Assembly (NCBI GenBank): GCA_963827685.1
Contig: CAWHBU010000008.1
Coordinates: forward strand, 11,027-75,026
DNA from: an uncultured delta proteobacterium
Lineage (GTDB): Bacteria; Desulfobacterota; BSN033; UBA1163
DNA: 64,000 nucleotides
Direction of reading: 5' to 3'
Shown: positions 9,835 to 54,120 of the stretch, in pieces
Numbering within the stretch: position 1 is the first letter of the stretch
How the letters are laid out: every line of letters begins with the position of its first letter
Position numbers and translations under genes: made by a program
The notes under the pieces: generated by a model
Told to the model about the DNA's origin: nothing
The model's database searches: none
Seen by the model: the letters and a program-made list of their open reading frames with translations, nothing else

Positions 9835-9902
9835 GAAGGCGGATTATTTGTAATTGTCTTGAACGATACTTAATCTGACAGACACTGTCAAATTACCTCT
9901 TG
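9835..9902 (-). promoter_or_regulatory. Repeat family F, copy 1: sigma70-like promoter with palindromic operator over -35
   Basis: TTGACA (9886-9891) -17 bp- TATCGT (9863-9868); TGACAG-N3-CTGTCA palindrome; second copy at 46942-47011. Confidence 0.55.
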
Positions 9903-10102
9903 ATTAAAGATTGTACCTACAAAGAGTGATCATCATGCCCTATTAAGAGTTGTCGATTTGCGATTGGAAGAGAGAGCGCAAAGCGAAGAAGTGGAGTCAT
10001 GGCAAAACGGTCAACCTGTCAGCTCCGGCAAATTGCTAGGACGAATCAGTATTAGGTTTTTCAAATAAGGGCAAATCCCAATGACCCATTTGGGACACAA
10101 AA

Positions 10103-11587
10103 TCAAGCAGGCAATGTAACCGTAAATGTTGTATCTTTACCGATCTCGGATTTCAAGTCAATTTGCCCACCGTAAGCACTTACGAGACGTTTAACAAGTG
10201 CGAGGCCTAAGCCGGCACCTTCTACGTTTCCAGTAAAGAATTTTTCTATCTGGTAGAATTTTTCGAATACTTTCCCTTGGTCCTCGGCAGGTATACCGCG
10301 TCCATTATCGTAGATTGAAATCTCGAGCTCTTGCGCGGATTTCTTGACAGAGATGCTGATTTTAATAACTTCCTTATCGTTAAACTTAATTGCATTTTCG
10401 ACGAGATTTTTCATGATCATGTCCATATGGGATTTATTTATACGGACGATATAACCTTGATCGGGGCAATCAATTTTCAATTCTGTTTTTTTATCCTTTA
10501 TTCCTTCGATCATGGGATTGACAAGGAGAGGCAGATAATCACACAGCACGATCTCCTCCTTCTGTAGATCAAGCTTCATCGTATTCAATTCCGTGAACTT
10601 TAATAGTCCGTCAATCAAAGTTGTATGTAAACGCGCCTGTCTTAAAACAGACTCTATATATTTTTTCTGTTTGTCATTAAGTGGACCGCAAATATTTTCT
10701 TTCTGAAGTATGGATGCACTTTGAGTGATGACGGTAAGAGGCGTGCGCAGCTTATGCGACATGAGGCCTAAGAAATCCTGCTTCATTAGCTCTTCTGTGC
10801 GCGTATCCGTTACATCGCGTATCGTCATGATGATATTCGAGACTTTCTCTTGGGCATCTTTTAATACATCCAAACTTGCCTCTAAATATAATGCTTTGAA
10901 TTGTTCTGTCTCCTCTCTGATGACATCAAAAGCTTTATGCGACCGGGAAACATCAATCATTTCTTCCTTTGGGATTGAAACAGAATAATTTAGAAAAATA
11001 AAATCGACTAAATTAATGGTTTCCGGGTCGGTAATATTTAAGTACTTCTGGGCAGATGAATTAATCGCCGCTATTTTCCAATCGGCCGTACAGACCACGA
11101 CTCCATCGCCCATCTCTTGAATAACCCTATCGAACTTTTGCCTTTCAGCTTCCTCTTTCACCCTTTGTAATTCTTTCAATTCGCGCCGCTGACGCTGGAG
11201 TTCCAGATGGGCACTGACCCGGGCGTTCACCTCTTCAAACTGGAACGGCTTGGTCACGTAGTCCACGCCGCCGGTACCGAAGGCCCTGACCTTGTCCATC
11301 GTCTCGTTCAGAGCGCTAATGAAAATGACCGAGATCTCTTTCAGTTTTTCGTCTTTCTTCAGCCGCTCGCATACCTCATAACCATCCATTTCCGGCATCA
11401 TGATATCGAGAAGGATAAGGTCGGGCGGGTCGTTTTTCGCCGCCTGCAGGGCGAGTTTTCCGCTCGGCACCGGCCGGACCCTATATCCCCGTTCCTTAAG
11501 CATCCCGGTCAGCAATTGGAGATTCGCCGGTGTGTCATCGACGACGATGATATTCGGTACGTCCTCACGACTCGTTCGTTGTTCCAT
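10103..11587 (-). CDS. Receiver-PAS-histidine kinase hybrid
   Basis: [19 protein letters not shown] receiver; SHKLRTPL H-box; NAIKF, DNGRGI, GAGLGL. Confidence 0.9.
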   Translation of the reverse strand: MEQRTSREDVPNIIVVDDTPANLQLLTGMLKERGYRVRPVPSGKLALQAAKNDPPDLILLDIMMPEMDGYEVCERLKKDEKLKEISVIFISALNETMDKVRAFGTGGVDYVTKPFQFEEVNARVSAHLELQRQRRELKELQRVKEEAERQKFDRVIQEMGDGVVVCTADWKIAAINSSAQKYLNITDPETINLVDFIFLNYSVSIPKEEMIDVSRSHKAFDVIREETEQFKALYLEASLDVLKDAQEKVSNIIMTIRDVTDTRTEELMKQDFLGLMSHKLRTPLTVITQSASILQKENICGPLNDKQKKYIESVLRQARLHTTLIDGLLKFTELNTMKLDLQKEEIVLCDYLPLLVNPMIEGIKDKKTELKIDCPDQGYIVRINKSHMDMIMKNLVENAIKFNDKEVIKISISVKKSAQELEISIYDNGRGIPAEDQGKVFEKFYQIEKFFTGNVEGAGLGLALVKRLVSAYGGQIDLKSEIGKDTTFTVTLPA

Positions 11588-14500
11588 TAGTTGTTCCTCC
11601 GGTTGGTATCAGGTCGAGCAGTTTCTGGTAGTCGAATCGCTCCGCCAGGCTCCGCATCCCATCGGCAGCGTGAGCATCGTGAGTTGCGGCCTGCTGAATC
11701 AACTCCAGCATGCGATCCAAGTCCGCATTGATGGTGGCTTCGCGGATCTGACGGACGAGTTCACCCGGGAGACCGTTCAATGACTCCGGCGTTAGTGCTC
11801 CAAATGCCTCCGGCTCGGCGGCCACTGATACAGCCTCCTCCACGTAAATGTACTTCGCGCCCAGCAACCGGCCGATTTTCTCGAACAACTCGGTCTCCCG
11901 GAACGGTTTCGAGATGAAGTTGTCGGCGCCGGTGGCAAGCACCTCCTGCCGCGTATCCTCAAAGGCGCTGGCGGTCACAGCAATGATCCTGGTATCCTTG
12001 CCGCCGACACTGGCGCGGATGCGCCGGATGGCCTCGTAGCCGTCCACCACGGGCATACGCAAATCCATGAGGATCAGGCTGGGATTCCACATTTCGAACT
12101 CTTTAACCGCCTCTTCCCCGTCGGCCACTTGCCGAATCTGGAACCCAACAGGGCCAAGCATCTGGGAAAGGAGCTCGCGGTTGTCTTCTTTGTCGTCGGC
12201 AACCAGCACTCGGTACTGCGGTTGTCCGGGCTGGAGTCCTGTCACGCAGCGTGATTCCGCCTTCACGACCACGGCCGCCGGGTCCGCTTCTTTTAACGCG
12301 ATATTGAACCCGAAAAGGCTGCCCCTGCCCACTTGACTGCTGACCGTGATGTCCCCGCCCATCAGCCGTACAAACTCGCGACTGATCGCCAGACCTAACC
12401 CCGTGCCGGTTCCCGCATCGCGCCCGGCCTGCATCTGCTCGAAGTGATGGAACAACCGATCCATATCCTCTGCCGCTATACCCGGGCCGGTGTCCTCGAT
12501 TTCGGCCCGTAGACGAAGTTCTTTTGTCTCCTCATGTAGGGCACGAACGCGCAAAATGATCCCACCTTTCTTGGTGAACTTTACGGCATTCCCGAGGAGG
12601 TTGATGAGCACCCCCCGCAGTTTGCCCTCATCGGACACAACAAAGCGTGGCACCTCGCCTATGCGCTCCACTGAGAACTGCAGATTCTTCGCATCGGTGC
12701 GCGGCCGGAACATCATCTCCAGATCGTTGAGCAGTGCGTGGAGGTCGAAGGCAGTCGGGTTCAGGGTCACTCGACCGGCTTCGATCTTCGATATCTCCAA
12801 AATATCGTTGATCAGCGCCAGAAGGTGCTCTCCGCTCCGGTTGATGGTGTCAAGCTGCTGTCGCTGCCGAGGCGTGACGGTCGGGTCGCGCTGCATCAAT
12901 TGCGAGAAGCCCAGGATAGCATTCATTGGAGTGCGGATTTCGTGTGACATGTTGGCAAGGAAGATGGTCTTAGCGCGGTTGGCGCGTTCGGCTTCCTCTT
13001 TAGCCTTGTGCAGGGCGGCCTCCAACTCCTTCTGTTCAGTGATATCGAGTGAGACGTTGGCCAGAAAAAGCGGCGCTCCAGTAACCGCGTCTTTGATTAT
13101 GAAGCTCATCGTGTGCACGTCGGTCAACTGCCCGGTCTTGAGGTTTAGGTATTGCAGGTCACCCTCCCATGTACCATTGTTCATCAGTGCTGGCAGGAGT
13201 TCATTTTGAACCTTCTCCTTCAGGTGATCAGGTATAATCTGTATGATATTGGTTTGTTCAATCTCTGTGGGAGATATACCGAGCATCTTGGCGCCGGCCT
13301 CGTTGAGGAAGACCATCTTTCCGTCGAGGGTGGTCAGGTTGATGAGTTCGCTTGAGTACCGAACCACTGCTGCCAGTTTCTGCAGTTCCTCCTCGGCACG
13401 CTTGCGTTCAGTGATGTCTCTTAACGTGCCCTCAACGCCGATTGGCTTTCCAGCCAAGTCAAAAAGGACGTGTGCATTGGCAGAAGCATAGATCAGACGA
13501 TTGTCTTTCGATTTCAACCGAAGTTCATAATCAACGACCTCTCCCTTTTCTTGGATTGCCTTCAAAAGTCTTATTCTATCTTCCGGATTAAAATAGACCT
13601 CTCCAACAGATTTGCCAATCAGCTCTCCACGAGGATATCCTGAATATCTTTCTATAGATGGACTGATGTCAGTAATGTTCCCCTCATTATCAGTTTGATA
13701 GAATGCATCTTGAACATTTTCAAATATTTTCCTATATTTGTTTTCGCTCTCCCTCAAGGCCTCCTCAGCCTGCTTGCGTTCGGTGATATCTTGAGCCACA
13801 TACACGATTCCTCGAATGACCTTGTTGGCGTCATGCATGACCGAGGCTGAAAGCAGAACGGGTATTTCCCGACCATTTTTTGTCAGGTATGTTTCTTCAA
13901 TATTACTGACATGGTTATCTGTCAACATGGTCTTCATCCATGGATCTTTGCTTGACCCGTTCCCCCCGAAAATCGTTTCAACCGGCCGTCCGACAAGTTC
14001 CTTCTCTTCGTAGCCTAGAAGCACACAGGTAGCCGTGTTTGTTCTTATGATTTTATTGTCCGGCGAAACAACGATTAACGAGTTAATCATGCTCTTGATG
14101 ATGTTATCCACGTAATCTTTTGAAACGGTCGTCTTGTCCAGGTCTTCAGCCATCTGATTAAAACCTTCAAGCAACATCTGAACCTCTCCCGTAGCCTTAA
14201 CGGCAATCCTGGTCGAGAGGTCGCCTTTAGCAAGCCGGGCTATGGCATGGGCAAGCTCAGTGATCGGATCAAATATTATCTGTCTTGAGACAATAAACAC
14301 TACTGCAGCAAGCACAATCGCCACCATTACATTCAGAACAAGTACAAACAGTACCGTTTTCACAATTTGTTGATGAATATTGTATCGCGACATGCAAATA
14401 GTAACTTTGCCGATGGTATAGGTGCCCGTGAGAATTGGGACAGAAAGTTCTGTAATGGCCTCTTTATTCCTGATGGCTGCTATAATATCTTCAACCTCAC

Positions 14501-14867
14501 TCTTTTTTGACAGCCCTGCAAGGATCACCTTTAGTCTCGGCGACCGATAATTAATGCTGGCATATTGAGAGGTCACAAGGTTTCCCTGTGTATCATAAAT
14601 AGCGATATACATGATGTCTTCATCTTTATTCGCTTGGCTGACAATTGAATCCAGCTGAATGCTGTCCTTCATGATCAAAGGCTCTTGACTGAGCATCGCT
14701 ATATAAGATGCAAAGTTTTTCCCCTTGGTCACCAAGGACTGCCTGAGCATCTTTCCTTCATTGATCGCAATGACAGTGCTTAACAAAATGGTGCCAACAA
14801 AAAGGATAAGGAAGATCTCTTTCAGAAACTTATATCGGATGCTTTTTTCATAAGGCTTTCTGAACAT
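11565..14867 (-). CDS. Membrane hybrid sensor kinase (HAMP, three PAS, HisKA, HATPase, REC)
   Basis: Two TM helices, three DITE(R/Q)K PAS ends, MSHEIRTPMN, NAVKFT, GTGLGL, LILMDLRMP. Confidence 0.92.
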   Translation of the reverse strand: MFRKPYEKSIRYKFLKEIFLILFVGTILLSTVIAINEGKMLRQSLVTKGKNFASYIAMLSQEPLIMKDSIQLDSIVSQANKDEDIMYIAIYDTQGNLVTSQYASINYRSPRLKVILAGLSKKSEVEDIIAAIRNKEAITELSVPILTGTYTIGKVTICMSRYNIHQQIVKTVLFVLVLNVMVAIVLAAVVFIVSRQIIFDPITELAHAIARLAKGDLSTRIAVKATGEVQMLLEGFNQMAEDLDKTTVSKDYVDNIIKSMINSLIVVSPDNKIIRTNTATCVLLGYEEKELVGRPVETIFGGNGSSKDPWMKTMLTDNHVSNIEETYLTKNGREIPVLLSASVMHDANKVIRGIVYVAQDITERKQAEEALRESENKYRKIFENVQDAFYQTDNEGNITDISPSIERYSGYPRGELIGKSVGEVYFNPEDRIRLLKAIQEKGEVVDYELRLKSKDNRLIYASANAHVLFDLAGKPIGVEGTLRDITERKRAEEELQKLAAVVRYSSELINLTTLDGKMVFLNEAGAKMLGISPTEIEQTNIIQIIPDHLKEKVQNELLPALMNNGTWEGDLQYLNLKTGQLTDVHTMSFIIKDAVTGAPLFLANVSLDITEQKELEAALHKAKEEAERANRAKTIFLANMSHEIRTPMNAILGFSQLMQRDPTVTPRQRQQLDTINRSGEHLLALINDILEISKIEAGRVTLNPTAFDLHALLNDLEMMFRPRTDAKNLQFSVERIGEVPRFVVSDEGKLRGVLINLLGNAVKFTKKGGIILRVRALHEETKELRLRAEIEDTGPGIAAEDMDRLFHHFEQMQAGRDAGTGTGLGLAISREFVRLMGGDITVSSQVGRGSLFGFNIALKEADPAAVVVKAESRCVTGLQPGQPQYRVLVADDKEDNRELLSQMLGPVGFQIRQVADGEEAVKEFEMWNPSLILMDLRMPVVDGYEAIRRIRASVGGKDTRIIAVTASAFEDTRQEVLATGADNFISKPFRETELFEKIGRLLGAKYIYVEEAVSVAAEPEAFGALTPESLNGLPGELVRQIREATINADLDRMLELIQQAATHDAHAADGMRSLAERFDYQKLLDLIPTGGTTNGTTNES

Positions 14868-14909
14868 TGATCATTGCTCCATTCGGGCCATAGCTAAATG
14901 TCGTAGCAG

Positions 14910-15872
14910 CTATTCTATTGTCCTTGTTACCGTCTTCATAAGATTAGGCGGGATCTGAAACCGGCCTTTTTTGGCTGTCTTCATGTTCAGAATCACATCG
15001 GATTTTTTTGCAGATTCTATGGGAATAGACGACGGTTTCACACCTTTTAGAATCTTCACTGCCTTCTCCCCGGCAAGCTGGCCCATCGAATACGCGTCTG
15101 CGCACACGCCCAGAAGTACCCCTTTCTCTACCAGGTCGTCGAGGTGGGTTATTGTGATCACTTTAGCCTTGGTCGCCATATCCGTGATTACCGAAACCTG
15201 ACTGTCGACTAGATTGCTGCCGGTAACATAAATAGCGTCTGCGGTACGCAAGACTTCTGGAAGCAGTTGATTAACCTCTTTAATCTCGGTCAAAGGAACC
15301 GGGATAACCTTAATCTTATAATTTGCGTCAATTCTCTGCAGATCTTTCAGTACTGACTCGGAGTTTTTTTCACCTGGCGTATAGAGCACTGCCAACCTCT
15401 TTACCTGCGTAAAGTTTTTCAGGCTTTCCATAAGCCTCGGCATGGGAATCTTAGAACTGCTGCCGGTAGTGTTGTTTCCCGAACTCTTCCAATCCTTAGC
15501 TATTCTAGCCTCCACCGGATCATAAACCACGCTGAAGACTATCGGCACGTCCTTAATCTCCCGGCTAACGGCTACGGTTACAGAAGTGCCCAACGTGATA
15601 ATCAAATCCAGTTTTTCTGCGGCAAACTTCTTTACCAGTTCCGCTGCCCTTGCCTTGTTTGCACCCGCCTGTTCTACAATAAAAGTTGTTTTCGGCTCTC
15701 CAAAGCCCCCTTCTCTGAGCTTATCTTTAATGCCTTTTTCGGCCTCGATGTATCGGGCCTCTTCACTAAACATCAGGACCCCGATTTTTCTCTGTGCCTG
15801 CGCCTCCATGGAAAACAGAGCTAAAGTCAGAAAGATCACAGCACTAACCAAGAATCTTTTCATTGTCCGCAT
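14910..15872 (-). CDS. ABC-type periplasmic substrate-binding protein
   Basis: Signal peptide; DLIITLGT, PIVFSVVYDPV, SGNNTTG, LYTPGEKNS, KILKGVKPSSIPIE. Confidence 0.88.
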   Translation of the reverse strand: MRTMKRFLVSAVIFLTLALFSMEAQAQRKIGVLMFSEEARYIEAEKGIKDKLREGGFGEPKTTFIVEQAGANKARAAELVKKFAAEKLDLIITLGTSVTVAVSREIKDVPIVFSVVYDPVEARIAKDWKSSGNNTTGSSSKIPMPRLMESLKNFTQVKRLAVLYTPGEKNSESVLKDLQRIDANYKIKVIPVPLTEIKEVNQLLPEVLRTADAIYVTGSNLVDSQVSVITDMATKAKVITITHLDDLVEKGVLLGVCADAYSMGQLAGEKAVKILKGVKPSSIPIESAKKSDVILNMKTAKKGRFQIPPNLMKTVTRTIE

Positions 15873-16004
15873 ACCTTTCTACCCCCTTTATATCCTTATA
15901 TTTGTTAGATCGTTGAACTTCCAGATGGAATGCCCGATTATCTCTCCTTCTGTGTAGCATTTCATGATCCATTGTGGTTGGTTTCCTGTTACCAAAGCGG
16001 CGAT

Positions 16005-16211
16005 TTATGCCGGGTCGTTCTCTCCTTTCGATCTCCTCTTTCCACTCTTTAAAAACTTGTTTAGTTCTGTCTGGAGGACCCTCCAGCCACTCCCTACTTT
16101 GATGGCGTTTATCTTGCCAGCGCGGATGCACTTAAAATAGGTGGGTTTTGAGATCTTTAGGTATCTGATTGCTTCGTCCGTAGTTAAGACCTCATCGTTA
16201 CTTTTTCCCAT
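16005..16211 (-). CDS. Excisionase-like (HTH_17) DNA-binding protein
   Basis: VLTTDEAIRYLKISKPTYFKCIRAGKINAIKVGSGWRV. Confidence 0.85.
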   Translation of the reverse strand: MGKSNDEVLTTDEAIRYLKISKPTYFKCIRAGKINAIKVGSGWRVLQTELNKFLKSGKRRSKGENDPA

Positions 16212-16293: not shown

Positions 16294-16542
16294 GGAAAAG
16301 AGGGATGAAGGTTTCTGTTTTGTAAGTATTTAATTTAATAAGGATTTTTTATATTGTGGCAGAGTTGTTGACGGCGATTTAATACAGAAAGCCCCGGCTT
16401 AAAATGCCATTTTGTCCAAGGTATGACGAATCTTGTAAATCCAAGCTGAAATGGTGGCTCAGCGGGTACCCCTACAAGTATTCATTTCAAAATAGGCAGG
16501 AAAGTTAATGAGTCAAGTAGCGCGGTGGAATTTCCCTCGTTG

Positions 16543-16620
16543 AATGTCAAGCCGAAAGGACCACAAGATATGAAGGAAGGTTTTAGGCCAAGATCGCAGA
16601 TAACGATTACCAAATGAAAT
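16543..16620. repeat. Repeat family E, partial copy
   Basis: gaatgtcaagccgaaaggaccacaagatatgaaggaaggttttaggcc is identical to 18225-18272 and similar to 48829-48874. Confidence 0.8.
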
Positions 16621-18032: not shown

Positions 18033-18140
18033 TGTCTTCGGGGTCAGACTTAATTATTGAGATTTTTTCTTGCTCTCTTTAAAAACAAGATAATCTTTCG
18101 TTCTGTTCTTAAATGTCAATATTTAAGTCTGACCCCAGGG
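18033..18140. repeat. GGGGTCAGACTTAA...TTAAGTCTGACCCC palindromic element, copy 1
   Basis: 14-bp terminal inverted repeat; near-identical direct copy at 24131-24245. Confidence 0.85.
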
Positions 18141-18175: not shown

Positions 18176-18272
18176 ATGATAAGAACTCGCTATCGGATGA
18201 GTTGAATGTATGAAAAACGGAGTCGAATGTCAAGCCGAAAGGACCACAAGATATGAAGGAAGGTTTTAGGCC
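18176..18272 (-). promoter_or_regulatory. Repeat family E with sigma70-like promoter
   Basis: TTGACA (18228-18233) -17 bp- TACATT (18205-18210). Confidence 0.55.
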
Positions 18273-18312
18273 GGTAGAGAAATAAACGGGACGGCTGTTC
18301 TATACTCCCCAA

Positions 18313-18492
18313 GGGTTTGAAGGTCTTGATGTCGGAGATCGAGTTCGCGTTGAGCTAATAGGGACTGATGTAGAACGAGGATTCATCGACTTTGCCCGAG
18401 TAGAAAGAGGGCAGGGGGATTGAGATTCGCCCGTCTCAGCAGGGGAATAGATCATTATATAAGTAGAAATTTATAATTTTGTGGACGCCCCC
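18313..18492 (+). repeat. Third copy of the RNB gene 3' end plus downstream sequence
   Basis: About 180 bp highly similar to 8959-9138. Confidence 0.88.
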
Positions 18493-18509
18493 CCTTTTTT
18501 ATCACAACA

Positions 18510-19163
18510 TCAAGTCTCTTCTGGCTGAGCCATCAACAAATTGGGTTGAATTCTCTTATTTCCCTCAATTGATACCCTAAATAGATTAATCAGCCTCAGT
18601 CTTTCGGATTCTCTCTTTTTTTCAATCGGACACAGTTGATATCGCAGATGAAATAAAAAAAGGAACGCATTATTTATTCCTCCCCCTATTCTAATTTCAT
18701 GCTGGTCAATAGGTGCTTCAATGTGTTGGTGTGTGTGAGGGTGACAGACTAACCCATCAATCACAGCTACCATGTCATATTCATCCATCCTTCGGATTGC
18801 ATCTTTGCGCCTATTGTGCTTCGTTAGAAATGATTGCTCCGGAAATGAAAAATAATGTGAATCAACACCATGTATCCACATCAACTCATTTTGCTTGTTA
18901 GCAGGACAGTATAAAAAATGTACCTCGTAATTGCCTATACCTGTGATATACATATCAAAATCAATACAAAACTGCTTACAGGATATTTTTACCTGGCCAT
19001 CTATAAACGGCTGTTTAAATGGGTGTTCTCCTATCTCCCAAAATTTCCCTAAGCTATTCCTATATTGCAGCAGCCACCGTTTTCGATCTTTTGAGCCTAA
19101 GGGACAGAAACCTAGCCGAATAGCATCACGCCAAAGGTAGGCACGAATGATGTCTCTATCCAT
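18510..19163 (-). CDS. Hypothetical protein, fourth gene of the Sir2-HerA operon
   Basis: Start overlaps the stop of the upstream ATPase; His-rich CHPHTHQH..HEIRIGGG motif; AT-rich like its neighbours. Confidence 0.75.
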   Translation of the reverse strand: MDRDIIRAYLWRDAIRLGFCPLGSKDRKRWLLQYRNSLGKFWEIGEHPFKQPFIDGQVKISCKQFCIDFDMYITGIGNYEVHFLYCPANKQNELMWIHGVDSHYFSFPEQSFLTKHNRRKDAIRRMDEYDMVAVIDGLVCHPHTHQHIEAPIDQHEIRIGGGINNAFLFLFHLRYQLCPIEKKRESERLRLINLFRVSIEGNKRIQPNLLMAQPEET

Positions 19164-22763: not shown

Positions 22764-22765
22764 AA

Positions 22766-23866: not shown

Positions 23867-23940
23867 AAAGTTTTTTTCTGGAGCCTCCGTTCGTCTACCC
23901 TTCTGACAAACTCTGCCATAAGGTTAAATGAATGCAATAA

Positions 23941-24052
23941 GGCCACATCTTCAGATGCCATGAATTTGTCCGATGTTTTTTGGTGTCTCCCCGTGTTCCG
24001 GCACTTCCTGGTTCAGAGAATACACCTCTCAGATTTCTATGTCAAACATAAG
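23941..24052 (-). promoter_or_regulatory. Repeat family B, copy 1: promoter plus leader upstream of sir2
   Basis: TTGACA (24040-24045) -17 bp- TATTCT (24017-24022); copies at 25509 and 46107. Confidence 0.65.
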
Positions 24053-24130
24053 TTTTCTTGTTTCCGAAGCTTGAAAGAAGGTTTTGAAAAGAGGCCCGAG
24101 CACCAGGTTGGGACGTGAGGCATATAGAAG

Positions 24131-27580: not shown

Positions 27581-27660
27581 TTGGGATCAGATCTTCACGG
27601 GTTGTTGATTGGAATATATCTATTTTATGAAAATTGGTCAACCGAAACTTTTGGAAAGAA
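27581..27660 (-). promoter_or_regulatory. Repeat family C, copy 1
   Basis: TTGACC (27636-27641) -17 bp- TATATT (27613-27618). Confidence 0.65.
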
Positions 27661-28187: not shown

Positions 28188-28272
28188 TCGAATAAAACCC
28201 CTTTTCAGGAAAAATTCATTTAATCCAAGTCTGCGGGGATTCTTAATACCTGATGCAAACTATACGTGGTTC

Positions 28273-28445
28273 CGGGGTCGGATCTTTATCCTTATTGCCT
28301 ATATTTCACGAAAGTTTTCTTCTGACCCCAGGCTTTTTTCCTAAAAACGAAAAAATATCTGCACCGCCACCCTGGGGTTTAATGATTGGAATATATCTAT
28401 TTTGTGAAAATTGGTCAACCGAAACTTTCAGAAAGAAAGCAAGGA
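28273..28445 (-). promoter_or_regulatory. GGGGTC..GACCCC unit plus repeat family C, copy 2
   Basis: TTGACC (28413-28418) -17 bp- TATATT (28390-28395). Confidence 0.65.
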
Positions 28446-28569
28446 AAAACTGGTTGCCAATTTCCACGAACAAATCATCTTGAGCTTTTTCTGGACTAAC
28501 GGTATATAGAGTTAAGCATCATCTAAGAAATCAACGAAGAGTTGAAGTGACCGAGTCGAAGGAGAGAAT

Positions 28570-29640: not shown

Positions 29641-29652
29641 TACAATGGCTCT

Positions 29653-29914
29653 GGGGGCGAATCTTTATTCTTGATTTTATCTATATTTCACGAAAGTTTC
29701 CCTCTGGCACCAGGTTTTTTCCCCTGAAATTGAAGAAATATCTGCACCGCCACCCTGTGGATTCCTGATTGGAATATATCTATTTTATGAAAATTGGTCA
29801 ACCGAAACTTTCAGATCGAAAGAGTCAAAGAAGTGGGATACTTGTAACATCTACAACGAGTGAAGATATGCTCTCTGTATGATCTGAAGATTTACGATTG
29901 AAATCGAGTATAAC
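29653..29914 (-). promoter_or_regulatory. GGGG unit, repeat family C copy 3 and terminus module D
   Basis: TTGACC (29796-29801) -17 bp- TATATT (29773-29778); module bounded by GTTATAC (29908-29914). Confidence 0.65.
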
Positions 29915-33981: not shown

Positions 33982-34095
33982 TTTTCATGCGGCTCTCTGC
34001 TGATTACTGGTAAAAATCTACACCTTTTGAAAAAAATGTCAATTGCATATTTCAGGAAGAAACATTGCATCTCTGCCCTCTTGAGTTGCGGGTCC

Positions 34096-34160
34096 TGGGG
34101 TCGAATCTTTATCATTGATTTTCCCCGTATTTCACGAACATTTCCTTCTGACCCCAGGCT
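34096..34160. repeat. Stand-alone GGGGTCGAATCT...TCTGACCCC unit
   Basis: Similar to units at 28273, 29653, 35148/36759 and 40606. Confidence 0.75.
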
Positions 34161-34197
34161 TTTCCCCTCGATTGTCGCCCACACCTTTTTCTTTATT

Positions 34198-35162: not shown

Positions 35163-36759
35163 ACAGTCTGTTGAAAAACTCTATTCAATAAATTCTTTGC
35201 TTTAATATATCACAATGGTAGAATATGGCAACTTTTGAATAAAGGAGGAGCCATTGTTAGGAGAAAACCCACGAAGTGAGCGCATGTTCTACTATGTCCG
35301 GATGGAAGATATCGTTCCAGAGAACCATCTTCTAAGATTGATCGACAGACATATCGATCTAAAATTCATTCGGGACAAAGTGAAGCATCTATACAGTCAT
35401 ACAGGGCGTCCATCGATTGATCCGGAGGTATTACTCAGGATGCTTTTAATTGGGTATCTGTATGGAATCACATCAGAGCGTCGCCTATGCGAAGAAGTAC
35501 AGATGCACATTGGGTACAGGTGGTTTGTGGGCTTGAACCTTGAAGACAAGGTGCCAGATCATTCGACCTTCTCCAAGAATCGGCATGAGCGGTTTTCAGA
35601 GAGCGATCTATTTCAGAGAATCTTTGACGAGATTGTGAATCAATGTGTCTCTCAGGGGTTGTTAACAGGAAAGCATCTGACGGTGGACAGCACCTATGTA
35701 CAAGCCAATGCGGCCTTAAAGAGTCTAGAACCAATAGTGGTGACCATGGGGACAGGAGAATACATAGAGAAATTAGAGAGAGAAAACCCTGTAACAGAAG
35801 AGCCTTGGGAGCCTGGGGACGACTATCCCCATCGGGGTCAGAAAATAAGCAATGGGACTCATCGGTCCAAGACCGATCCGGATGCCCGTCTGGCAAGGAA
35901 ATCGTTGAAAGCAAACACCCAACTTTATCATGGAGTGACCTATATCATGGACAACCGGAGCCGGATCATCGTAGGGGCGGATGTGGGAAAACCAGATCGG
36001 AAAACTGACTGCGAAAAGGCGTTGAAGCAGATACGAAGGATTCCATTTGCTTTTGGGATAAAGCCGGAGAGCTTAGGAGCAGATAAGGGGTACTCCACGG
36101 GAGAATTTATCAATGCACTGGTCAAAGAGAAGGTACAGCCTCACATTCCAATCATGGATTCTCGGAGTCAAAACGATCGAGGGATCTACTCGATAGAACA
36201 ATTTAGCTTTGATCCGGGTGAAAACCGGTTTCTCTGTCCGTCGGGGAAGGAGTTGAAATATTGGGGAATTCATAAACCCAGTAAGCAGCATGTCTATAGG
36301 GCGAGGGCGAAGGATTGCAAAGTGTGTTCGAGGAAGGCGGAGTGTACGAGGGACAGGTCCAGATCACTCAGTTATCACATTTATGAGGAGTTTATCAATC
36401 AAGCGAGGCAAATCAATCAAACAAGGGCTTATCGGATATCGCAGAGGATGAGGAAGAGGATTGAGGAGCTATTTGGAGAAGCAAAGGAGTGGATGGGACT
36501 GAGGAGGGCTAAATTCCGGAGGCGGAAGTTTATCAGAGAACAGGTATTAATGACGGCGACAGCGCAGAATATAAAAAGGATGGTAAAGCTGTTATCCAAA
36601 GGAGGATACACAAAGCAAGCCCAGGTGGCCCAACAGCTTGGGGAATCGTTTCTTTCAAAGACATTTTCTAAATTATTTGGTTTGATGACTCTTTTCAGGT
36701 TTCGAACTCAATATTTTCTTCAGGGTTGCTGATAAATGCTTAGTTTTTCAACAGACTGT
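35163..36759 (+). mobile_element. IS1182-family insertion sequence inside a GGGGTC unit
   Basis: Perfect 18-bp inverted ends ACAGTCTGTTGAAAAACT; short T-rich duplication; flanks rejoin to GGGGTCGAATCTTTATCCTTG. Confidence 0.9.
35254..36732 (+). CDS. IS1182-family transposase
   Basis: GRPSIDPEVLLRMLLIGYLYGITSER, VPDHSTFS, TVDST, GADKGY, IEELFGEAK. Confidence 0.92.
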   Translation: MLGENPRSERMFYYVRMEDIVPENHLLRLIDRHIDLKFIRDKVKHLYSHTGRPSIDPEVLLRMLLIGYLYGITSERRLCEEVQMHIGYRWFVGLNLEDKVPDHSTFSKNRHERFSESDLFQRIFDEIVNQCVSQGLLTGKHLTVDSTYVQANAALKSLEPIVVTMGTGEYIEKLERENPVTEEPWEPGDDYPHRGQKISNGTHRSKTDPDARLARKSLKANTQLYHGVTYIMDNRSRIIVGADVGKPDRKTDCEKALKQIRRIPFAFGIKPESLGADKGYSTGEFINALVKEKVQPHIPIMDSRSQNDRGIYSIEQFSFDPGENRFLCPSGKELKYWGIHKPSKQHVYRARAKDCKVCSRKAECTRDRSRSLSYHIYEEFINQARQINQTRAYRISQRMRKRIEELFGEAKEWMGLRRAKFRRRKFIREQVLMTATAQNIKRMVKLLSKGGYTKQAQVAQQLGESFLSKTFSKLFGLMTLFRFRTQYFLQGC

Positions 36760-37000
36760 TTATCCTTGACTTTGCCCATATCTCACGAAAGTTTCCTTCT
36801 GACCCCAATCTTTTTTTCCCTGAAAACGAAGAATATCTGCGCCGCCACCCTGCGGATTCCTAATTGAAATATACATATTTTACGAAAATTGGTCAACCGA
36901 AACTTTCAGAAAGAAAGAGTCAAAGAAGCAGGCTGTTCGTTCCGCCTACGAGTCTACAGTCTGAGATGACTCTAAGGATTGACGATTACTGGTACAAATG
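36760..37000 (-). promoter_or_regulatory. Rest of GGGG unit, repeat family C copy 4 and module D
   Basis: TTGACC (36891-36896) -17 bp- TATATT (36868-36873). Confidence 0.65.
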
Positions 37001-38309: not shown

Positions 38310-38365
38310 TAAGTTGTTTTTCGTGACACGGATTTAATCTTGGGGACGGTTCTTATATTCTGATT

Positions 38366-38471
38366 GAAGCTCCCCGCCCACAGGGCGGGACTTCCCGGCA
38401 TTGTATAATATCATTTATATTGTGCCCCTTAACCCCGCTAACAAGGCGGGACTTGCGGGGCACGTTCCGGC
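38366..38471. mobile_element. IS200/IS605-type miniature element
   Basis: Two CCCGC..GCGGG hairpins; absent from the homologous site at 25711-25759. Confidence 0.7.
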
Positions 38472-38503
38472 CAATAACAATTAGATACAAAGGGGACAGG
38501 AGA

Positions 38504-39296: not shown

Positions 39297-39560
39297 GTCT
39301 AATCCTTGTTTTCATATCGCTGCGGCGAAATAAACTTTTTTCAAAATTGACCAATCACTTAGAAATATTATTCATTAGTGAAGACGAAGAAATATCTGCG
39401 CCGCCACCCTGCGGATTCTTGATTGGAATATATCTATTTTATGAAAATTGGTCAACCGAAACTTTCAGAAAGAAAGAGTCAAAGAAAAGGGCTGGTTGTT
39501 ACATCTACAAGTCCTCACTGAAAGAGAATCTTGCAAGTTGACGATTACGGATAGAAACAT
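39297..39560 (-). promoter_or_regulatory. Long form of repeat family C (copy 5) with attI-like end, plus module D
   Basis: TTGACC (39450-39455) -17 bp- TATATT (39427-39432); ends ATATGAAAACAAGG-ATTAGAC. Confidence 0.6.
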
Positions 39561-40449: not shown

Positions 40450-40605
40450 AATGTCTCCCTCCTTTGACAAGAATTTATTTTGGCCACCCGTGCCATTATG
40501 AGATTTCAAAGTTGAAATTTCAGTTTGACGCGAACTGACTTTCTTGTACCGATAGAATACAGGGAAGGCACCCCCAAAGGGAAATCATAAGCCCTTTGCG
40601 GTTTC

Positions 40606-40860
40606 GGGGTCGAATCTTTATCCTTGGCTTTGCCTAAATTTCACGAAAGTTTCCTTCTGACCCCAGCCTTTTTTCCCCTGAAAACGAAGAAATATCTTCA
40701 CCGCCACCCCTGCGGATTCCTGATTGGAATATACATATTTTATGGAAATTGGTCAACCGAAACCTTCAGAAATGGATAGTTAAAAGGTGGGTTGGTTGTG
40801 ACACCTACAAGTCCTCGGAGGGAGGCTAATTGGAGAACTGAAGATTTCCATTTGAAAGTA
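40606..40860 (-). promoter_or_regulatory. GGGG unit, repeat family C copy 6 and module D
   Basis: TTGACC (40751-40756) -17 bp- TATATT (40728-40733). Confidence 0.65.
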
Positions 40861-42003: not shown

Positions 42004-42398
42004 TCTACCTTAACCAAATTCGAATTGCAACTTTTAGCGTCATAGCAATTCCCAAAATTAGAGATGATTTGTAAATCTGATAGAAAACTTAAGGGAAAAA
42101 GATTAACAGGCATTAGGTTTGGATGAGGATTTCTTAAGCTTGATAAATGAATTTTTTTGAAGAGGGCAATTATATGGTGCAGGTTAAATCTTGGACTCGG
42201 CTCCTTTCAAACCTCAATTCCTTCGTACCACAGAGAACTATTCCATCTTGTCGATTATCGTTTGAAACATTCATCTTGGGGTCAGATTTGAGATTCGCGA
42301 TTACAGGAAGAAAGAGTTAAGAAATGGGATCGCACTTCAAGCCACAAAGTTTGGAGATCAATCTGTGTTAAGAGCTTTTGGTTTTAGATTGGGGGAGA

Positions 42399-42435
42399 GG
42401 ATAACGGGGAAAATCAGCCGCCGCTGCAGGCGGTC
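42399..42435 (-). other. Right half of an attC-like site after the restriction gene
   Basis: CCGCCTGCAGCGGCGGCTGATT-TTCCCC-GTTATCC: L'/spacer/R' geometry as at 31718. Confidence 0.45.
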
Positions 42436-44465: not shown

Positions 44466-44589
44466 TCGCTAACATTTATTTTTATATTGCTGCGGCGAAA
44501 TAAGCCTTTATCAAAAGTTGACCAAGTACTGATTAATATTTTTCGTTGCTGAAAACGAAGAAATATTTCCGGCCTCCACCCTGTGGATT
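44466..44589 (-). repeat. Long form of family C without its promoter; attI-like end
   Basis: Homologous to 39300-39418; ends ATATAAAAATAAAT-GTTAGCG. Confidence 0.6.
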
Positions 44590-44638: not shown

Positions 44639-45647
44639 TTAAGACTTGCGCGCTGAGACAATACCCAACCCGTCTGACATCGCGTTATGTTCAATAGATA
44701 TATCAACAAATCCAGCTTCGAGCAACAAATCACGGTGCTCCTTTTCCGTGTAGGACTTTCCATCATCATAAACATTGAGGAATACAAGACTGAAAGCCAC
44801 AGATGCAATCGGAGATAATCGCGTGTCATTTAGAATACTCCCGACGATATAGATAGAACTGCCAGGTTCCATCACTTGAGAAATATTCTTCAATGCTTTC
44901 TTGGCATCCTGGGATGGCAAAACCTGGATCAACGCACGCAGAATCGCAACGTCATAACTTCCTTCAGGTGGCCTATTGATAAGATCGGCGGCCATTACCG
45001 ATATCCTTTTAGACATACCAGCTTCCGATATGAATCGTTCTGAGATCGACACCACCGCAGGCAAGTCGACCACTGTTGCCTCAAGATCAGGATATGTCCC
45101 ACAAATTCCGATCGAGAGTCCACCTGTCCCACCACCCGCATCTAACAGACGCTTAAACCTAGAAAAATCGATTTTCCCTGCCTAGTTGTCTCCCGGCGCT
45201 TAGACTGCCGGGATATTGGCCCTTAAAGTACTTGATCAGATCATCTTTCGGCAAAGACATCCAGTCAAGTTTTGCCTGAGGTTTGCCGGTGCGAATGCTT
45301 TCTGAAGTCTTAAGAGTGGCTTGCCACAAACCGTTATAAAAACCAGCCAATCCACCCATATATTCCGGGCGGCCACGCACTAGAAACCGGTTGGCTTCGT
45401 CAGTATTGGAGAAGACTCCGTCTTCAACGATCAGAAGGCCAGCCGTTACCAGAACGTAAAGAAGGGGTGAGAGCTTGTCCGCCTGAACGTGCAATGCTTT
45501 GGCAAGACTTTCGACATTCATAGATCCACCCTTGAGCGGCGTAAAAACGTCAAGCTGCATCCCAGCCAACATCGCGAAAGACGGATAAACAGCGTAGGCA
45601 TTACGCATAATGGCAGTGGGGCTAATGCTATTATTGTTCTTAGTCAT
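44639..45647 (-). CDS. SAM-dependent O-methyltransferase with dimerisation domain (frameshift near 45180); cassette-like
   Basis: AGMQLDVFTPL N-domain, LLDAGGGTG, VDLP; bounded by GTTATGC (45715-45721) and GCCTAAC (44628-44634). Confidence 0.85.
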
Positions 45648-46084: not shown

Positions 46085-46106
46085 CCTCTCTAGGGGAAAC
46101 ACAATT

Positions 46107-46252
46107 GAGTCAGATCTTCAGATGTCTTGAATTTATCCGATGTTTTTTCGGTGTCTCCCCGTGTTCCGGCACTTCCTAGTTCAGAGAATATACCTCTCAG
46201 ATTTCTATGTCAAACATGAGTTTCCATGTCATATGCTGAGACCTGCCCCCTG
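46107..46252 (-). promoter_or_regulatory. Repeat family B, copy 3, bounded by GGGGCAGGTCT and AGATCTGACTC
   Basis: TTGACA (46208-46213) -17 bp- TATTCT (46185-46190). Confidence 0.65.
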
Positions 46253-46941: not shown

Positions 46942-47093
46942 CGAAGGCGGATTATTTGTATTTGCCCTGAATGATACTTAATCTGACAGACCCTGTCAAA
47001 TTACCTCTTGCCTAACGAGTACACCGACTACCATTCAATTCTAGGTTGCTTTGGAAAGTGAAGATTGCGGATTGAAATACTCAACAGATAACT
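46942..47093 (-). promoter_or_regulatory. Repeat family F copy 2 plus module D
   Basis: TTGACA (46994-46999) -17 bp- TATCAT (46971-46976). Confidence 0.55.
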
Positions 47094-47988: not shown

Positions 47989-48735
47989 TTACTTCTCCTT
48001 TTCGGAATGAGTATCTTTAGACCCTGTACCACCTGTTTTCACAGCGCCTTGCCCTCCGCCTCCTGAGGTTTTAGCTGTTCCCGTTTTTGTTCCCGTTCCT
48101 ACTTTTGTTCCTGTTTCAACCTTTGTTCCTGTCCCTACTTTTGTTCCTGTTCCTACAGTCTTGTTACTAGACCCTACTTTACTTCTTGTATCCTTCCCAC
48201 CCTTGTCAGTGGACTCTTTGCCGTGATGAACATCTCCACCACGATGAGCTTCTGTGGGCCTATGAAACTCTCTACCACCCCAATGATGCTGGGAGTGATC
48301 TCTATACCAAGGCTGTCTGTTCCAGTAGTGATTGCGACCCCAATTCCTCCAATGGCCATGGAAGTCACCGTAGTGTATCCGATGATATCCTGGCGGCACT
48401 CCGAGAATATAATCAGGTGGTATAACCACGACGGCCGGGGGGATACGAGGTGTCTCAACATAAGCCCATGGTCCGTTGTAGATGGAAGACCTGAACCAAT
48501 GATCTTCATGGAAGCGATACCAGAAGCCTCCGAAAAAATAGAGACCTACAGTGTTCGGCACCAAATAGACATCGTTTGCTTCACTGGGAACTACCACGAC
48601 ATCGGGCGGTGCTGGAAATACCAGAGGCGGGGGAGGGGGAACGCCAATGCTGATGTTCACCTCGGCCCTACCAACAAGCGCCATGCCAACGACAAAAAAC
48701 AGACAAACCATAAGAAATACTACGATCTGCTTCAT
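47989..48735 (-). CDS. Secreted Pro/Trp/His-rich protein with GTGTKV repeats
   Basis: Signal peptide, VNISIGVPPPPP, GFWYR..YNGPW, low-complexity tail. Confidence 0.8.
   Translation of the reverse strand: MKQIVVFLMVCLFFVVGMALVGRAEVNISIGVPPPPPLVFPAPPDVVVVPSEANDVYLVPNTVGLYFFGGFWYRFHEDHWFRSSIYNGPWAYVETPRIPPAVVVIPPDYILGVPPGYHRIHYGDFHGHWRNWGRNHYWNRQPWYRDHSQHHWGGREFHRPTEAHRGGDVHHGKESTDKGGKDTRSKVGSSNKTVGTGTKVGTGTKVETGTKVGTGTKTGTAKTSGGGGQGAVKTGGTGSKDTHSEKEK
48077..48156. repeat. Coding 18-bp tandem repeat (about 4 units)
   Basis: Encodes (V)GTGTK repeats. Confidence 0.7.
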
Positions 48736-48775: not shown

Positions 48776-48899
48776 ATGATAAGAACTCCCTTTAGAGCCA
48801 GGGATGAATATATGAAAAACGGGGTTGTATGTCAAACAAAAAAAACTGTAAGATATGAAGGACGGTTTTGGGCCAGTTTTCCAGATGACGATTACCAAC
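48776..48899 (-). promoter_or_regulatory. Repeat family E with promoter, interrupted by IS3
   Basis: TTGACA (48830-48835) -17 bp- TATATT (48807-48812). Confidence 0.55.
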
Positions 48900-48954
48900 T
48901 GACCTTCCCCCGAGTTGATGGACACACCTGAGAATTTGTATCATTGGACAGGAG

Positions 48955-50111: not shown

Positions 50112-50432
50112 TCATGTGTCCACTTTTTCAGGGGAAGGTCAAACCGAAATCTTGCATCATGGTCGAAATCTGTCAGACAACGACTTCAGTAAGAAAGAGT
50201 CAAAAAAACGGACTACCTCTTCAACCTACAAAGTTTGAAGATGAATCTACGTTAAGAGCTGTTGATTTTAGATTGGGGGAGAGGGGGCAGAAGGGACATC
50301 CTATATTGCTCCTGTCAAGAGGGGAAACGAAACAATTTCATCTTTTGCAAAACAGGTGGTGAATCCGTCGGTTCCTGCAAAACGCTCCACAACTTATTTT
50401 CCCCTCAAAAGGCAAGAAATCTTTCGGGTCGT

Positions 50433-52830: not shown

Positions 52831-53274
52831 CGATCTCTCCTCTGTCTATTAGCTTCAACTAACATTATATTCTATGTTGATGCTATATTTTCCTTAACGA
52901 TCAAACCTTTCGGCGTCTTTAGAGACTCCCTTGCGTCCTAAAATACTCTTACGCAGTCCTTTTTGCATGAAAATATTATTATTAAGAATATGATATCACA
53001 TCCGCATAATTAATGAACAAAATTATCTGGCCGTCAGGAACAGGGTTGTCAATCATCGATCATGGTTTGTAATATACACCACATTTAAACTTTTTGGAAG
53101 TGAGGATTGTCAGGAAGAAACACACATTTTGAAAAGCCCAATCAAGCCCTCAGTATTGGATAGGGTTTTTATTCGCATTTGAAATGTTGTATCGCGGGGC
53201 GAAATTTAAAAGTCACGACAGGAAAAAAGAATTAAAAAAAGGGGCTACCTCTTTCACCAACAAAATTTGGAGAT

Positions 53275-53440
53275 GAATCCACGTTAAGAGCTGAGGTTGT
53301 TTTCCCTACCCCGCACTTCTGGTCCGCCATGGCTATTATTTTCATCGCTAATTTGACTTCGTATCCGAATCCAATAGAATCTTTTTCTATTATAAAATCT
53401 AAATCATGGCCGCCTCTTGAAAGGCCCGTTATGGATAGAC
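53275..53440 (-). pseudogene. Fused scraps: nuclease-like tail and ParA N-terminus
   Basis: HDLDFIIEKDSIGFGYEVK followed by MKIIAMADQKCGVGKTT, ending in module D. Confidence 0.5.
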
Positions 53441-53652
53441 CGAGGTTCTGTGCCAATATCTAACGGTTTTCCAGCTAACCCACAATAACCATGTTCTCCA
53501 ACCCATCTCGATCCCACGATTTTTTGCCATGCCATACAACCTGAGCCTTCGCATATCCATTCTGGATTTATTTGTCCTAACTCCTTACTTGCAGGTTTTG
53601 AAAATTTAAACGGGCAATACATTTTCTTAGCTTCATCTTTTTTGACTAACAT
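53404..53652 (-). CDS. Small Cys-rich hypothetical protein
   Basis: AGGAGG RBS; YCPF..CEGSGCMAW..GYCGLAG. Confidence 0.65.
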   Translation of the reverse strand: MLVKKDEAKKMYCPFKFSKPASKELGQINPEWICEGSGCMAWQKIVGSRWVGEHGYCGLAGKPLDIGTEPRSIHNGPFKRRP

Positions 53653-53843
53653 AGGTTTTCCTCCTTTCTTTTAACCTTTCCATTACCGTCTTTGGGCCAA
53701 GGACCAAATCTGATTACTGCGTTTACATTCCTTTTTTGGCCCATATCCTAACCCTTTACCCTGCCCTGAAGTCTTCCCTGGGCCGTTGCAGAGGGACCTA
53801 CGTCAGAGCCAGACGTGCTCCTTTTTCACCCGTTCAACCGCAC

Positions 53844-53936
53844 GAAGCCCCGCCTTTGAAGGCGGGGAAGGAGGCGCGGCTCAGGGTGAACCTTGAGCAA
53901 ACCCCGGCCTTCAGGCCGGGGAGTCGAAAGGTTCAC
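53844..53936 (+). mobile_element. IS605-type right-end miniature element with nested hairpin
   Basis: GAAGCCCCGCC-TTTGAA-GGCGGGG ... TTCAC terminus. Confidence 0.5.
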
Positions 53937-53950
53937 TCGCGTAAAAAAGT

Positions 53951-54120
53951 GGGGTCTGGTCTTTTTCCATTGCTGAAAACGAAGAAATACTTTCGTCCCC
54001 ACCCCCGTGGATTGTTGATTGGAATATACATATTTCGTGAGAATTGGTCAACTGAAACTTTCCGGAAGGAATAGCTAAGAAGGGGTGCTAATCTTTGAAG
54101 TTGACGATGACTGATAGAAG
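53951..54120 (-). promoter_or_regulatory. Repeat family C copy 7 plus short module D
   Basis: TTGACC (54046-54051) -17 bp- TATATT (54023-54028). Confidence 0.65.

Follow-up and report, generated by a model that had tools for sequence, protein, structure and literature searches.

Promoter-like repeats of old origin head unrelated genes in a hypervariable gene array of an uncultured delta proteobacterium

How does a bacterium come to hold a long row of unrelated genes that point the same way, stand behind copies of the same repeats and have no integrase beside them? A 64,000-nucleotide stretch of DNA from an uncultured delta proteobacterium raises this question. The whole stretch, which we call the window, is contig C8:11027-75026 of the host genome G000 (5.23 Mb in 14 contigs, about 47% G+C), and the region studied here is window 9835-54120. 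An original prediction, made from the letters of the window, described this region as a gene-capture hotspot, in which promoter modules without open reading frames (ORFs) are moved in trans by an integron integrase and/or an HUH transposase. We find that this is indeed a variable accessory region: ORF-less modules with predicted promoters recur 5' of unrelated genes, and gene content differs among relatives. The proposed ways of moving the modules did not hold up. Instead, we give about an even chance to the following reading. The region is a hypervariable accessory-gene array, in which old, selectively kept "mobile promoter" modules head the cargo genes and provide portable homology.

Repeated modules ahead of co-oriented genes

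A Pfam scan covered 62 ORFs of the window, and 28 ORFs between 9835 and 54120 have a match. Four of these are transposase ORFs of insertion sequences (ISs). The other genes are co-oriented, as had been claimed for about 10 to 54 kb: 23 of the 24 lie on the minus strand, and the only one on the plus strand is a radical-SAM gene (28570-29304) with a small partner ORF. Array genes are also mutually unrelated, and they occur singly or in short operons. None of the 62 ORFs matches Phage_integrase, in line with the claim that the array holds no integrase.

The spacers between the genes are reused. A repeat search of the window returned 17 direct families and no inverted pairs. Self-BLAST returned 43 pairs, all of them direct, and intergenic except for two gene-fragment duplications. 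We grouped the repeats into families M1-M8. In five families a sigma-70-like hexamer scan finds a hexamer pair that scores at least 10/12 (M1 seven times, M2 three times, M4, M5 and M6 twice each). All 16 sites are on the minus strand and none is on the plus strand. Hence the promoter modules of the original prediction have real counterparts, although by these predicted promoters there are five families (M1, M2, M4, M5 and M6) and not four. The prediction's "one grammar" stands as far as the reuse of modules goes; the fixed order does not, since the modules form a loose mosaic.

Between 24 and 44 kb we count 42 promoter-like sites compared to 24.4 ± 3.9 in shuffled sequences. In two other stretches the totals are not above those of shuffles (29 compared to 22.9 ± 4.7, and 16 compared to 15.7 ± 3.1). 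Thus the signal consists of repeated high-scoring sites and is not a general excess of promoters.

Promoter modules stand directly 5' of minus-strand genes, with the exception of one M1 copy that faces the 3' end of the plus-strand pair. The genes 3' of the modules belong to unrelated Pfam families. The modules themselves are alike: in self-BLAST, M1 pairs are 83-92% identical over 125-206 nt, and pairs of M2, M4, M5 and M6 are 84-98% identical over 51-129 nt. The copies in the window are the following.

40596..40816, minus: M1, full length (D part, core TTGACC-N17-TATATT at 40756-40728, M1b hairpin part), 5' of the dienelactone-hydrolase gene 39733-40509
39306..39557, minus: M1 with M7 as alternative 3' part, core 39455-39427, 5' of the FMN reductase gene 38504-39256
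36754..36998, minus: M1 interrupted in M1b by the IS 35163-36759, core 36896-36868
29646..29856, minus: M1, full length, core 29801-29773, facing the sole plus-strand gene pair (28570-29640) at its 3' end
28267..28456, minus: M1, core 28418-28390, 5' of ORF 27705-28187
27598..27660, minus: M1, core only (27641-27613), joined directly to the leader of the HTH-peptidase M78 gene 26320-27561
53962..54083, minus: M1 at the right edge of the array, core 54051-54023, 5' of ORF 53404-53652
44476..44589, minus: partial M1 (3' half of M1a plus M7, without core), 5' of the gene pair 42440-44414 for a methyltransferase (MTase)-SNase fusion and an MjaI-like restriction endonuclease (RE)
34086..34168, minus: M1b part (GGGGTC..GACCCC) by itself, from self-BLAST
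23936..24069, minus: M2 (TTGACA-17-TATTCT, 24045-24017), 5' of the SIR2-HerA operon
25504-25637, minus: M2, fused to a duplicated fragment of the response regulator-histidine kinase (RR-HK) operon
46104-46237, minus: M2, 5' of the GIY-YIG gene
18033..18137, minus: M4, similar to a miniature inverted-repeat transposable element (MITE), with 14-bp terminal inverted repeats and an internal TTGACA-18-GATTAT; second copy at 24131-24235
18176..18275, minus: M5 (TTGACA-17-TACATT, 18233-18205); further copy at 16539-16617
48776-48902, minus: M5 (TTGACA-17-TATATT, 11/12 in the hexamer scan)
9835..9920, minus: M6 (TTGACA-17-TATCGT, 9891-9863), at the left edge of the studied region
46943-47028, minus: M6 (TTGACA-17-TATCAT, 11/12 in the hexamer scan)
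42298..42400, minus: M3, a "D"-like terminus that follows gene ends and has no promoter hexamer pair; others at 50181-50284, 53219-53293 and 25638-25691
38337..38491, minus: M8-type repeat, about 155 nt and hairpin-rich, just 5' of a c-di-GMP-I riboswitch; shorter piece at 25711-25741

The rest of the M1b that is split by an IS lies at about 35150-35170, 5' of the ARMT1-like gene 34198-35073. The M1b part that stands alone at 34086..34168 makes M1b a separable sub-module. M4 folds strongly (DNA fold z = -6.3), and the M8-type repeat is found at many places in five relatives. We rejected GGGGTC..GACCCC as a general signal: its 41 pairs genome-wide lie mostly in unrelated sequence, and GGGGTC is not enriched in the genome (2124 found compared to about 2553 expected).

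Anatomy, distribution and age of M1

M1 is a mosaic, as seen in 89 copies that we aligned and listed in register. Its parts come in the order D part, core, seven-base repeats, 35-nt block and interchangeable 3' part. The upstream D part is about 100 nt long and itself opens with seven-base units. In the core of about 65 nt a predicted -35 hexamer, a 17-nt spacer and a predicted -10 hexamer follow each other (TTGACC-N17-TATATT). After the core come zero to five seven-base repeats of the CAATCAN type (in 16, 19, 36, 5, 7 and 6 of the 89 copies, respectively). Past a sharp junction, the 3' part is either M1b (a unit of about 75 nt flanked by GGGGTC and GACCCC), M7, an M8-type module or directly the ribosome-binding site (RBS) of the gene; several truncated copies lead straight to RBS and start codon. 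The D part upstream and the GGGGTC..GACCCC part downstream, both named in the original prediction, therefore exist for M1. The seven-base repeats coincide with the predicted transcript start (for example at window 39420-39400 and at loci L031, L046 and L049), and in some copies the -10 region is partly duplicated in tandem.

Selecting copies by exact 20-mers would bias a profile of M1. Hence we redid the profile by BLAST, with three window copies as queries against 15 array segments of six genomes. Nearly all of the 136-137 matches contain the core (maximum coverage 123-124), with an identity of 90% or more at almost all of its positions. This holds also for the flank 5' of the -35 and for most of the spacer, which contains a short inverted repeat. 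Only about 30-60% of matches have the D and M1b parts. Conservation of 80-90% spans about 200 nt and extends into parts that other copies do without. RNAalifold gave no consensus RNA structure for 88 whole units, 50 distinct leaders or 88 upstream parts. Rfam gave no match at E ≤ 1 over two M1 copies, and at the gathering score the only match in the window is the c-di-GMP-I riboswitch. Hence M1 is conserved at the DNA level.

The M1 core resembles a strong sigma-70 promoter. That the modules act as promoters is suggested by hexamer consensus, orientation and spacing. The conserved flank and spacer suggest that an additional protein is bound, such as a repressor. We asked which way the next ORF of 80 aa or more points for 94 cores that span -35 to -10: it runs with the core in 76 cases and against it in 17, and one core has no such ORF. 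The median gap between core and next ORF is 178 nt. Within the host genome, comparing the distance from core to next ORF with the opposite direction was not discriminating.

A 1.6-kb IS is found at the identical M1b position in four M1 copies (window 35163-36759; G000:C2 14201-15797, 16867-18468 and 37534-39130), and the three C2 copies are identical to that of the window. M1b thus looks like an insertion hot spot, much like repetitive extragenic palindromic sequences (REPs), which some ISs target. In other M1 copies different sequences begin at that same position.

M1 is clustered in the host genome. A query with the 66-nt core finds 16 places: seven on C8, six in C2:13-40 kb, one each at C2:1.09 Mb and C3:2 kb, and a partial match on C4. 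Thirteen of these fall in two regions. The other module families have 2-9 BLAST matches each in the genome, which are also clustered. Beyond the host, 13 of the 14 further genomes of the genus have M1, as does one of four genomes from the family's other genera, but none of 12 from two other families. Exact matches come from metagenome-assembled genomes labelled Thermodesulfobacteriota, "delta proteobacterium" and once Syntrophales; the host is accordingly an uncultured member of the Thermodesulfobacteriota. Within each of the 15 segments from six genomes all M1 matches are on the same strand (137 of 137). Arrays can be large, with 27 M1 copies in G002:C17, 22 and 15 in two segments of G010 and 19 in G012:C175. 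Among 72,556 plasmid records there is no M1 match. One exact match to a 20-mer of the M1 core turned up in a viral contig collection (L131), in a 124-kb contig filed as viral.

M1 is also old. A tree of 46 full-length copies from six genomes is star-like, with a median terminal branch of 0.12 and good support for only two of 43 inner branches. The copies are not grouped by genome: we count 24 label changes compared to a mean of 25.8 after shuffling, and 42 of 200 shuffles gave a value as low. Hence M1 predates the sampled species, and was neither homogenised within genomes nor spread in a recent burst. An old family among genes that turn over argues for selection on the modules themselves. The original prediction had treated the module as a discrete mobile unit; M1 has no fixed ends, and its star-like tree points to an old, conserved family instead.

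Gene turnover, breakpoints and neighbouring features

The gene content of the arrays changes between relatives. When a 20-kb piece of the window is compared to five relatives, only scattered genes match, each in a different context. The coding sequence of the FMN reductase is alone 93% identical in four genomes, the MTase recurs without its endonuclease in the relative G004, and the GIY-YIG gene recurs together with its M2 in relatives. G009 shares the HTH-M78 unit (25739-27658) at 96-98% identity, and the homology goes no further than the upstream edge of the M1 core. For comparison, core genes are 92-94% identical, and the difference hints at a recent exchange.

Arrays of two relatives, G010 and G002, carry varied cargo. 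It comprises tannase/feruloyl esterases, carboxylesterases, kumamolisin-type peptidases and a class-A beta-lactamase-family protein; nitroreductases, old yellow enzyme (OYE) and FMN reductases and molybdoenzymes; and AhpC, DoxX, HxlR, Usp, PNPOx-like proteins, PIN toxins and restriction-modification systems. Among the ORFs scanned in three arrays there is no integrase or other site-specific recombinase; transposases (Mutator and IS3-type) are present in those of G010 and G002.

Points at which arrays differ coincide with repeats. G004:C49 and one G010 array are mostly colinear at about 94-95% identity, but they are rearranged. The alignments on either side of two rearrangement junctions share precisely the 51-nt M1 core as their overlap. 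The arrays also differ by a 3.1-kb indel, one end of which lies in an M3 copy. Another joint appears in a metagenome (run X3), where a 2825-nt contig of about 99% identity to the window connects 46084-44576 to 40673-40298. Along the join run the O-methyltransferase unit, M1, about 0.8 kb of other DNA and another M1 ahead of the hydrolase gene. This contig lacks 40871-44414, the block of MTase/RE, ferredoxin and PagL. We set aside other metagenome joints with short sides or less than 95% likeness, as they may stem from M1 copies of other organisms.

The modules could have been scattered genome-wide in random orientation, or gene order could have been the same in all relatives; either would have spoken against the original prediction. 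Instead, the cores concentrate in two regions (13 of 16), they mostly share the direction of the next ORF (76 of 94) and gene content varies.

The other features of the window, with genes named from Pfam, are listed below.

10103-16131, minus: two-component/ABC-binding operon
18510-23866, minus: SIR2-HerA defence operon of four genes (SIR2 / HerA / AAA)
26320-27561, minus: HTH-peptidase M78 gene
34198-35073, minus: ARMT1-like phosphatase gene
37170-38120 and 39733-40509, minus: two dienelactone hydrolase genes
38504-39256, minus: FMN reductase gene, one of two FMN reductases in the array
42440-44414, minus: MTase-SNase fusion and MjaI-like endonuclease pair
38233-38310, minus: c-di-GMP-I riboswitch (39.8 bits, gathering score 35) in the leader of the dienelactone-hydrolase gene 37170-38120
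35163-36759, plus: IS with a 492-aa DDE transposase (ORF 35254-36732), inserted in M1b
29857-31721, minus: second IS with a 517-aa DDE transposase (ORF 30077-31630), 97.5% identical to a copy on contig C3
48955-50111, plus: IS3-family orfA/orfB
8958-9139, plus: 3' end of the RNase II gene (7582-9069) and about 70 nt 3' of it, with direct repeats at 9742-9834 and 18312-18493

Further array genes with Pfam matches encode a response regulator, a PAS-LuxR regulator, a PagL-like protein, a ferredoxin, a GIY-YIG protein and a B12-radical-SAM enzyme. A truncated RR-HK paralogue (24388-25496) lies behind an M2 module; the duplicate of the RR-HK operon junction, 457 nt at 94.5% identity, is fused behind this M2 at 25496. 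The repeat of the RNase II 3' end forms the left border of the array, and comparable fragments are found at array borders in G010. Its threefold occurrence could be the scar of repeated insertion at the gene end. Two genes of the window are broken, an O-methyltransferase into two ORFs (44639-45647) and a P-type ATPase into two overlapping ORFs (4704-7225). ORF 47989-48735, which has no Pfam family, contains four 18-nt tandem units at 48075-48164.

How such an array may form

To explain the array, we propose that each single gene or short operon is headed by an ORF-less mosaic repeat that bears a promoter. Transcripts would start a few bases into the run of seven-base repeats and continue into whatever gene follows. 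Selection would keep the modules, most likely for their role in expressing and co-regulating the cargo, which is largely made up of stress, detoxification and defence genes. Since the modules are co-oriented direct repeats, they would also act as portable homology. Homologous recombination of the host between copies, which we infer to be the main engine, could then delete, duplicate or re-insert units of module plus gene. When an excised circle inserts by the Campbell route via one module, the array is always co-oriented again; the strict orientation would follow from this. Illegitimate joining would fuse modules to new genes at varying points, and the M2 with the RR-HK fragment at 25496 may be an example. 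A dedicated integrase would not be required.

Several points weigh against this proposal. Homologous recombination leaves the first attachment of modules to unrelated genes unexplained. Furthermore, one of the three mapped breakpoints, the 3.1-kb indel, is a 2-nt microhomology join and not homologous, and with a star-like tree and about 12% terminal divergence, long tracts of perfect identity for RecA are available only in the core. The X3 contig could be a chimera, since it comes from one short-read assembly that runs across repeats. Plain replication-strand bias may account for some of the co-orientation, which persists to 64 kb and tracks the cumulative GC skew, with its steady drop from 10 kb on. 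Promoter activity and start site are predictions from the consensus, and 17 of 94 cores face an opposite-strand ORF, although some of these ORFs are IS insertions or spurious. Finally, the conserved flank and spacer could equally reflect the site of a recombinase.

A recombinase site is the heart of the main rival explanation, a new integron-like system. Here the M1 core would be promoter and attachment site at once, and a site-specific recombinase encoded in trans would move cassettes of core plus gene. Such a system would account for a core of about 65 nt that is conserved far past the two hexamers, for M1 copies that are 100% co-oriented within arrays and for different 3' modules that meet at one junction after the M1a part. 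It also fits two breakpoints inside the 51-nt core and the G009 unit, whose homology stops at the upstream edge of the core and whose identity is above that of core genes (96-98% compared to 92-94%). However, no recombinase gene lies in or beside three arrays, and the genome's tyrosine-recombinase matches are far from them. M1 homology stops at many different downstream points, and one breakpoint is outside the core. Moreover, the core is the only long stretch that core-only copies share, so homologous exchange maps there as well. We therefore regard the integron-like system as quite doubtful. We are just as sceptical of its broader form, a cassette system that mirrors the integron, with the core as attachment site of a trans-encoded recombinase or as substrate of a dedicated homology-guided pathway. 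If it were true, captured genes would arrive expressed and co-regulated, and the genus would maintain libraries of 50 kb, made up of exchangeable genes for detoxification and defence, with neither intI nor attC. Alternatively, the modules could be purely regulatory. They would be promoter/operators of one or a few stress regulons, the arrays would arise from tandem duplication and gene replacement, and the repeats would be irrelevant to rearrangement. The theme of detoxification, redox and defence in the cargo agrees with this, as do the short inverted repeat in the spacer, the conserved flank and the old, star-like M1 family. We nevertheless consider it unlikely: conservation of 80-90% over about 200 nt includes parts that are dispensable elsewhere, breakpoints coincide with repeats, and co-oriented arrays of about 27 are not usual for members of a regulon.

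Transposition and classical integrons fare worse with the sequences at hand. Non-autonomous transposable elements with outward promoters, either MITE-like or PATE-like (palindrome-associated transposable elements) and derived from IS200/IS605, could have inserted 5' of genes. The genome is rich in ISs, M4 combines 14-bp terminal inverted repeats with a strong fold, and M1b is flanked by a 6-bp inverted repeat and occurs alone. Indeed, M4 and perhaps also M1b may be true MITEs embedded in the mosaic. M1 itself lacks terminal inverted repeats (0 inverted pairs), both of its ends are variable and no target duplication is visible in 16 intergenic regions that we read through; hence we rejected M1 as a discrete MITE. 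Module copy number is low, at 8-21 BLAST matches per family, and the copies are clustered rather than dispersed, and a star-like tree without clustering by genome speaks against a recent burst. The genome has 25 Y1_Tnp matches, 21 of which are identical IS200-type copies and four are diverged Y1 genes. The modules share no sequence with the IS200-type copies or with the flanks of the four diverged genes, and none matches IS605-like or RAYT (REP-associated tyrosine transposase) flanks. We therefore rejected a link to HUH enzymes (IS200/IS605, RAYT), and the HUH transposase of the original prediction is not supported. Y2_Tnp (PF04986) has no match in the genome, but this search is weak because its control was also blank in 14 reference genomes. 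A transposable origin of the modules is thus highly improbable in our view. One diverged, RAYT-like Y1 gene (G000:C6:428228-428560) is flanked by a repeat of about 60 nt with at least 64 copies genome-wide. Judging from the sequences, this gene and its REP-like repeats are a separate system, unrelated to the modules.

A cluster of attC sites lacking an integrase is called a CALIN. An attC site is an imperfect palindrome (R''-L''...L'-R', RYYYAAC / GTTRRRY) that follows each cassette. If the array were such a remnant of a classical integron, attC-bounded cassettes would be moved by an IntI encoded elsewhere. Like integrons and CALINs, the array consists of co-oriented, small, mostly single-gene, unrelated units with a conserved repeat between them and a content that varies among relatives; like CALINs, it has no integrase nearby. 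CALINs are treated in PMC4889954. Unlike in these systems, there is no intact IntI, no attC architecture was found, and there is no single Pc/attI: the array has 16 separate predicted module promoters that score at least 10/12. The repeat also carries its own predicted promoter and travels with the downstream rather than the upstream gene, the opposite of attC logic. No IntI above cut-off is present in the host genome or five relatives. The best match to IntI (TIGR02249) in the genome reaches 191 bits compared to a cut-off of 265 and covers positions 197-315 only. This trace is a remnant of 101 aa from the C-terminal end, located between ligA and rarA (G000:C3:782919-783275; L001:1492-1797, minus), with 154.8 bits as a protein over TIGR02249 positions 217-315. 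It is also found in G010, and no cassette array adjoins it. A strict scan for RYYYAAC/GTTRRRY plus fold on both strands gave no attC-like sites, although divergent attC could escape it, and gave 0-1 sites in each of 10 shuffles. The best attC-like hairpin (31700-31765) was rejected: its spacers are asymmetric, with an unpaired stretch of 9-10 nt on one side only followed by a T-rich tail, and it folds like a terminator. The labels attC, attI-like and IS91-like of the original prediction are not supported, and neither is movement by an integron integrase in trans. That the array is a CALIN is extremely unlikely.

We therefore return to portable promoter modules and ask what is known of similar systems. 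Putative mobile promoters (PMPs), the nearest published concept, were reportedly described by Matus-Garcia, Nijveen and van Passel in 2012. They are defined by at least 80% identity over at least 50 nt 5' of unrelated genes, and their mode of movement is unknown (PMC3575422). M1, M2, M4, M5 and M6 all reach this identity ahead of non-homologous downstream genes. Like PMPs, the modules are ORF-less sequences upstream of unrelated genes and are common to related taxa. PMPs are mostly scattered pairs, whereas here one family heads up to about 27 adjacent co-oriented units in arrays of about 50 kb. M1 also differs in that it is conserved genus-wide and is a mosaic, whose 3' parts are interchangeable and whose seven-base repeat varies.

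Other intergenic repeats offer further parallels. REPs are known targets of ISs, and some intergenic repeats, such as Correia elements and enterobacterial repetitive intergenic consensus sequences (ERICs), provide promoters. Together with the bacterial interspersed mosaic elements (BIMEs) of enterobacteria they resemble the modules as intergenic mosaics of sub-motifs, and M1b, like REPs, is repeatedly hit by an IS at one position. These elements are short, palindromic, high in copy number and dispersed in both orientations; the M modules, in contrast, are low-copy, clustered, direct and mostly non-palindromic. BIMEs/REPs, Correia elements and ERICs have been named beside mobile promoters (PMC3575422). 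We also compared the modules to the Xer-dependent pdif modules. Those of Acinetobacter plasmids are bounded by inversely oriented 28-bp XerC/D sites. Like the present modules, pdif modules have no integrase of their own, and they are thought to move by a host recombinase. The repeats here are direct, much longer and promoter-like, and no dif-like site was seen, albeit without a rigorous search. The array is best classed as an unusual, array-forming variant of promoter reuse. Searches of the literature for intergenic repeats and promoters of Thermodesulfobacteriota and for integrase-independent promoter cassette arrays gave no description of such arrays.

Most known cases of promoter reuse are scattered pairs whose origin is unknown. 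In these arrays one module heads dozens of neighbouring unrelated genes. M1 is kept across the genus and coincides with points where arrays differ between species and strains. The arrays are a concrete case in which to study the spread of mobile promoters. If the modules are active, the layout is a natural "plug-and-express" design: a gene that lands behind a module would join a ready-made regulon, and the repeats would ease reshuffling of the set by ordinary recombination. This would be an integrase-free way, open to testing, for soil and wetland anaerobes to build integron-like gene libraries.

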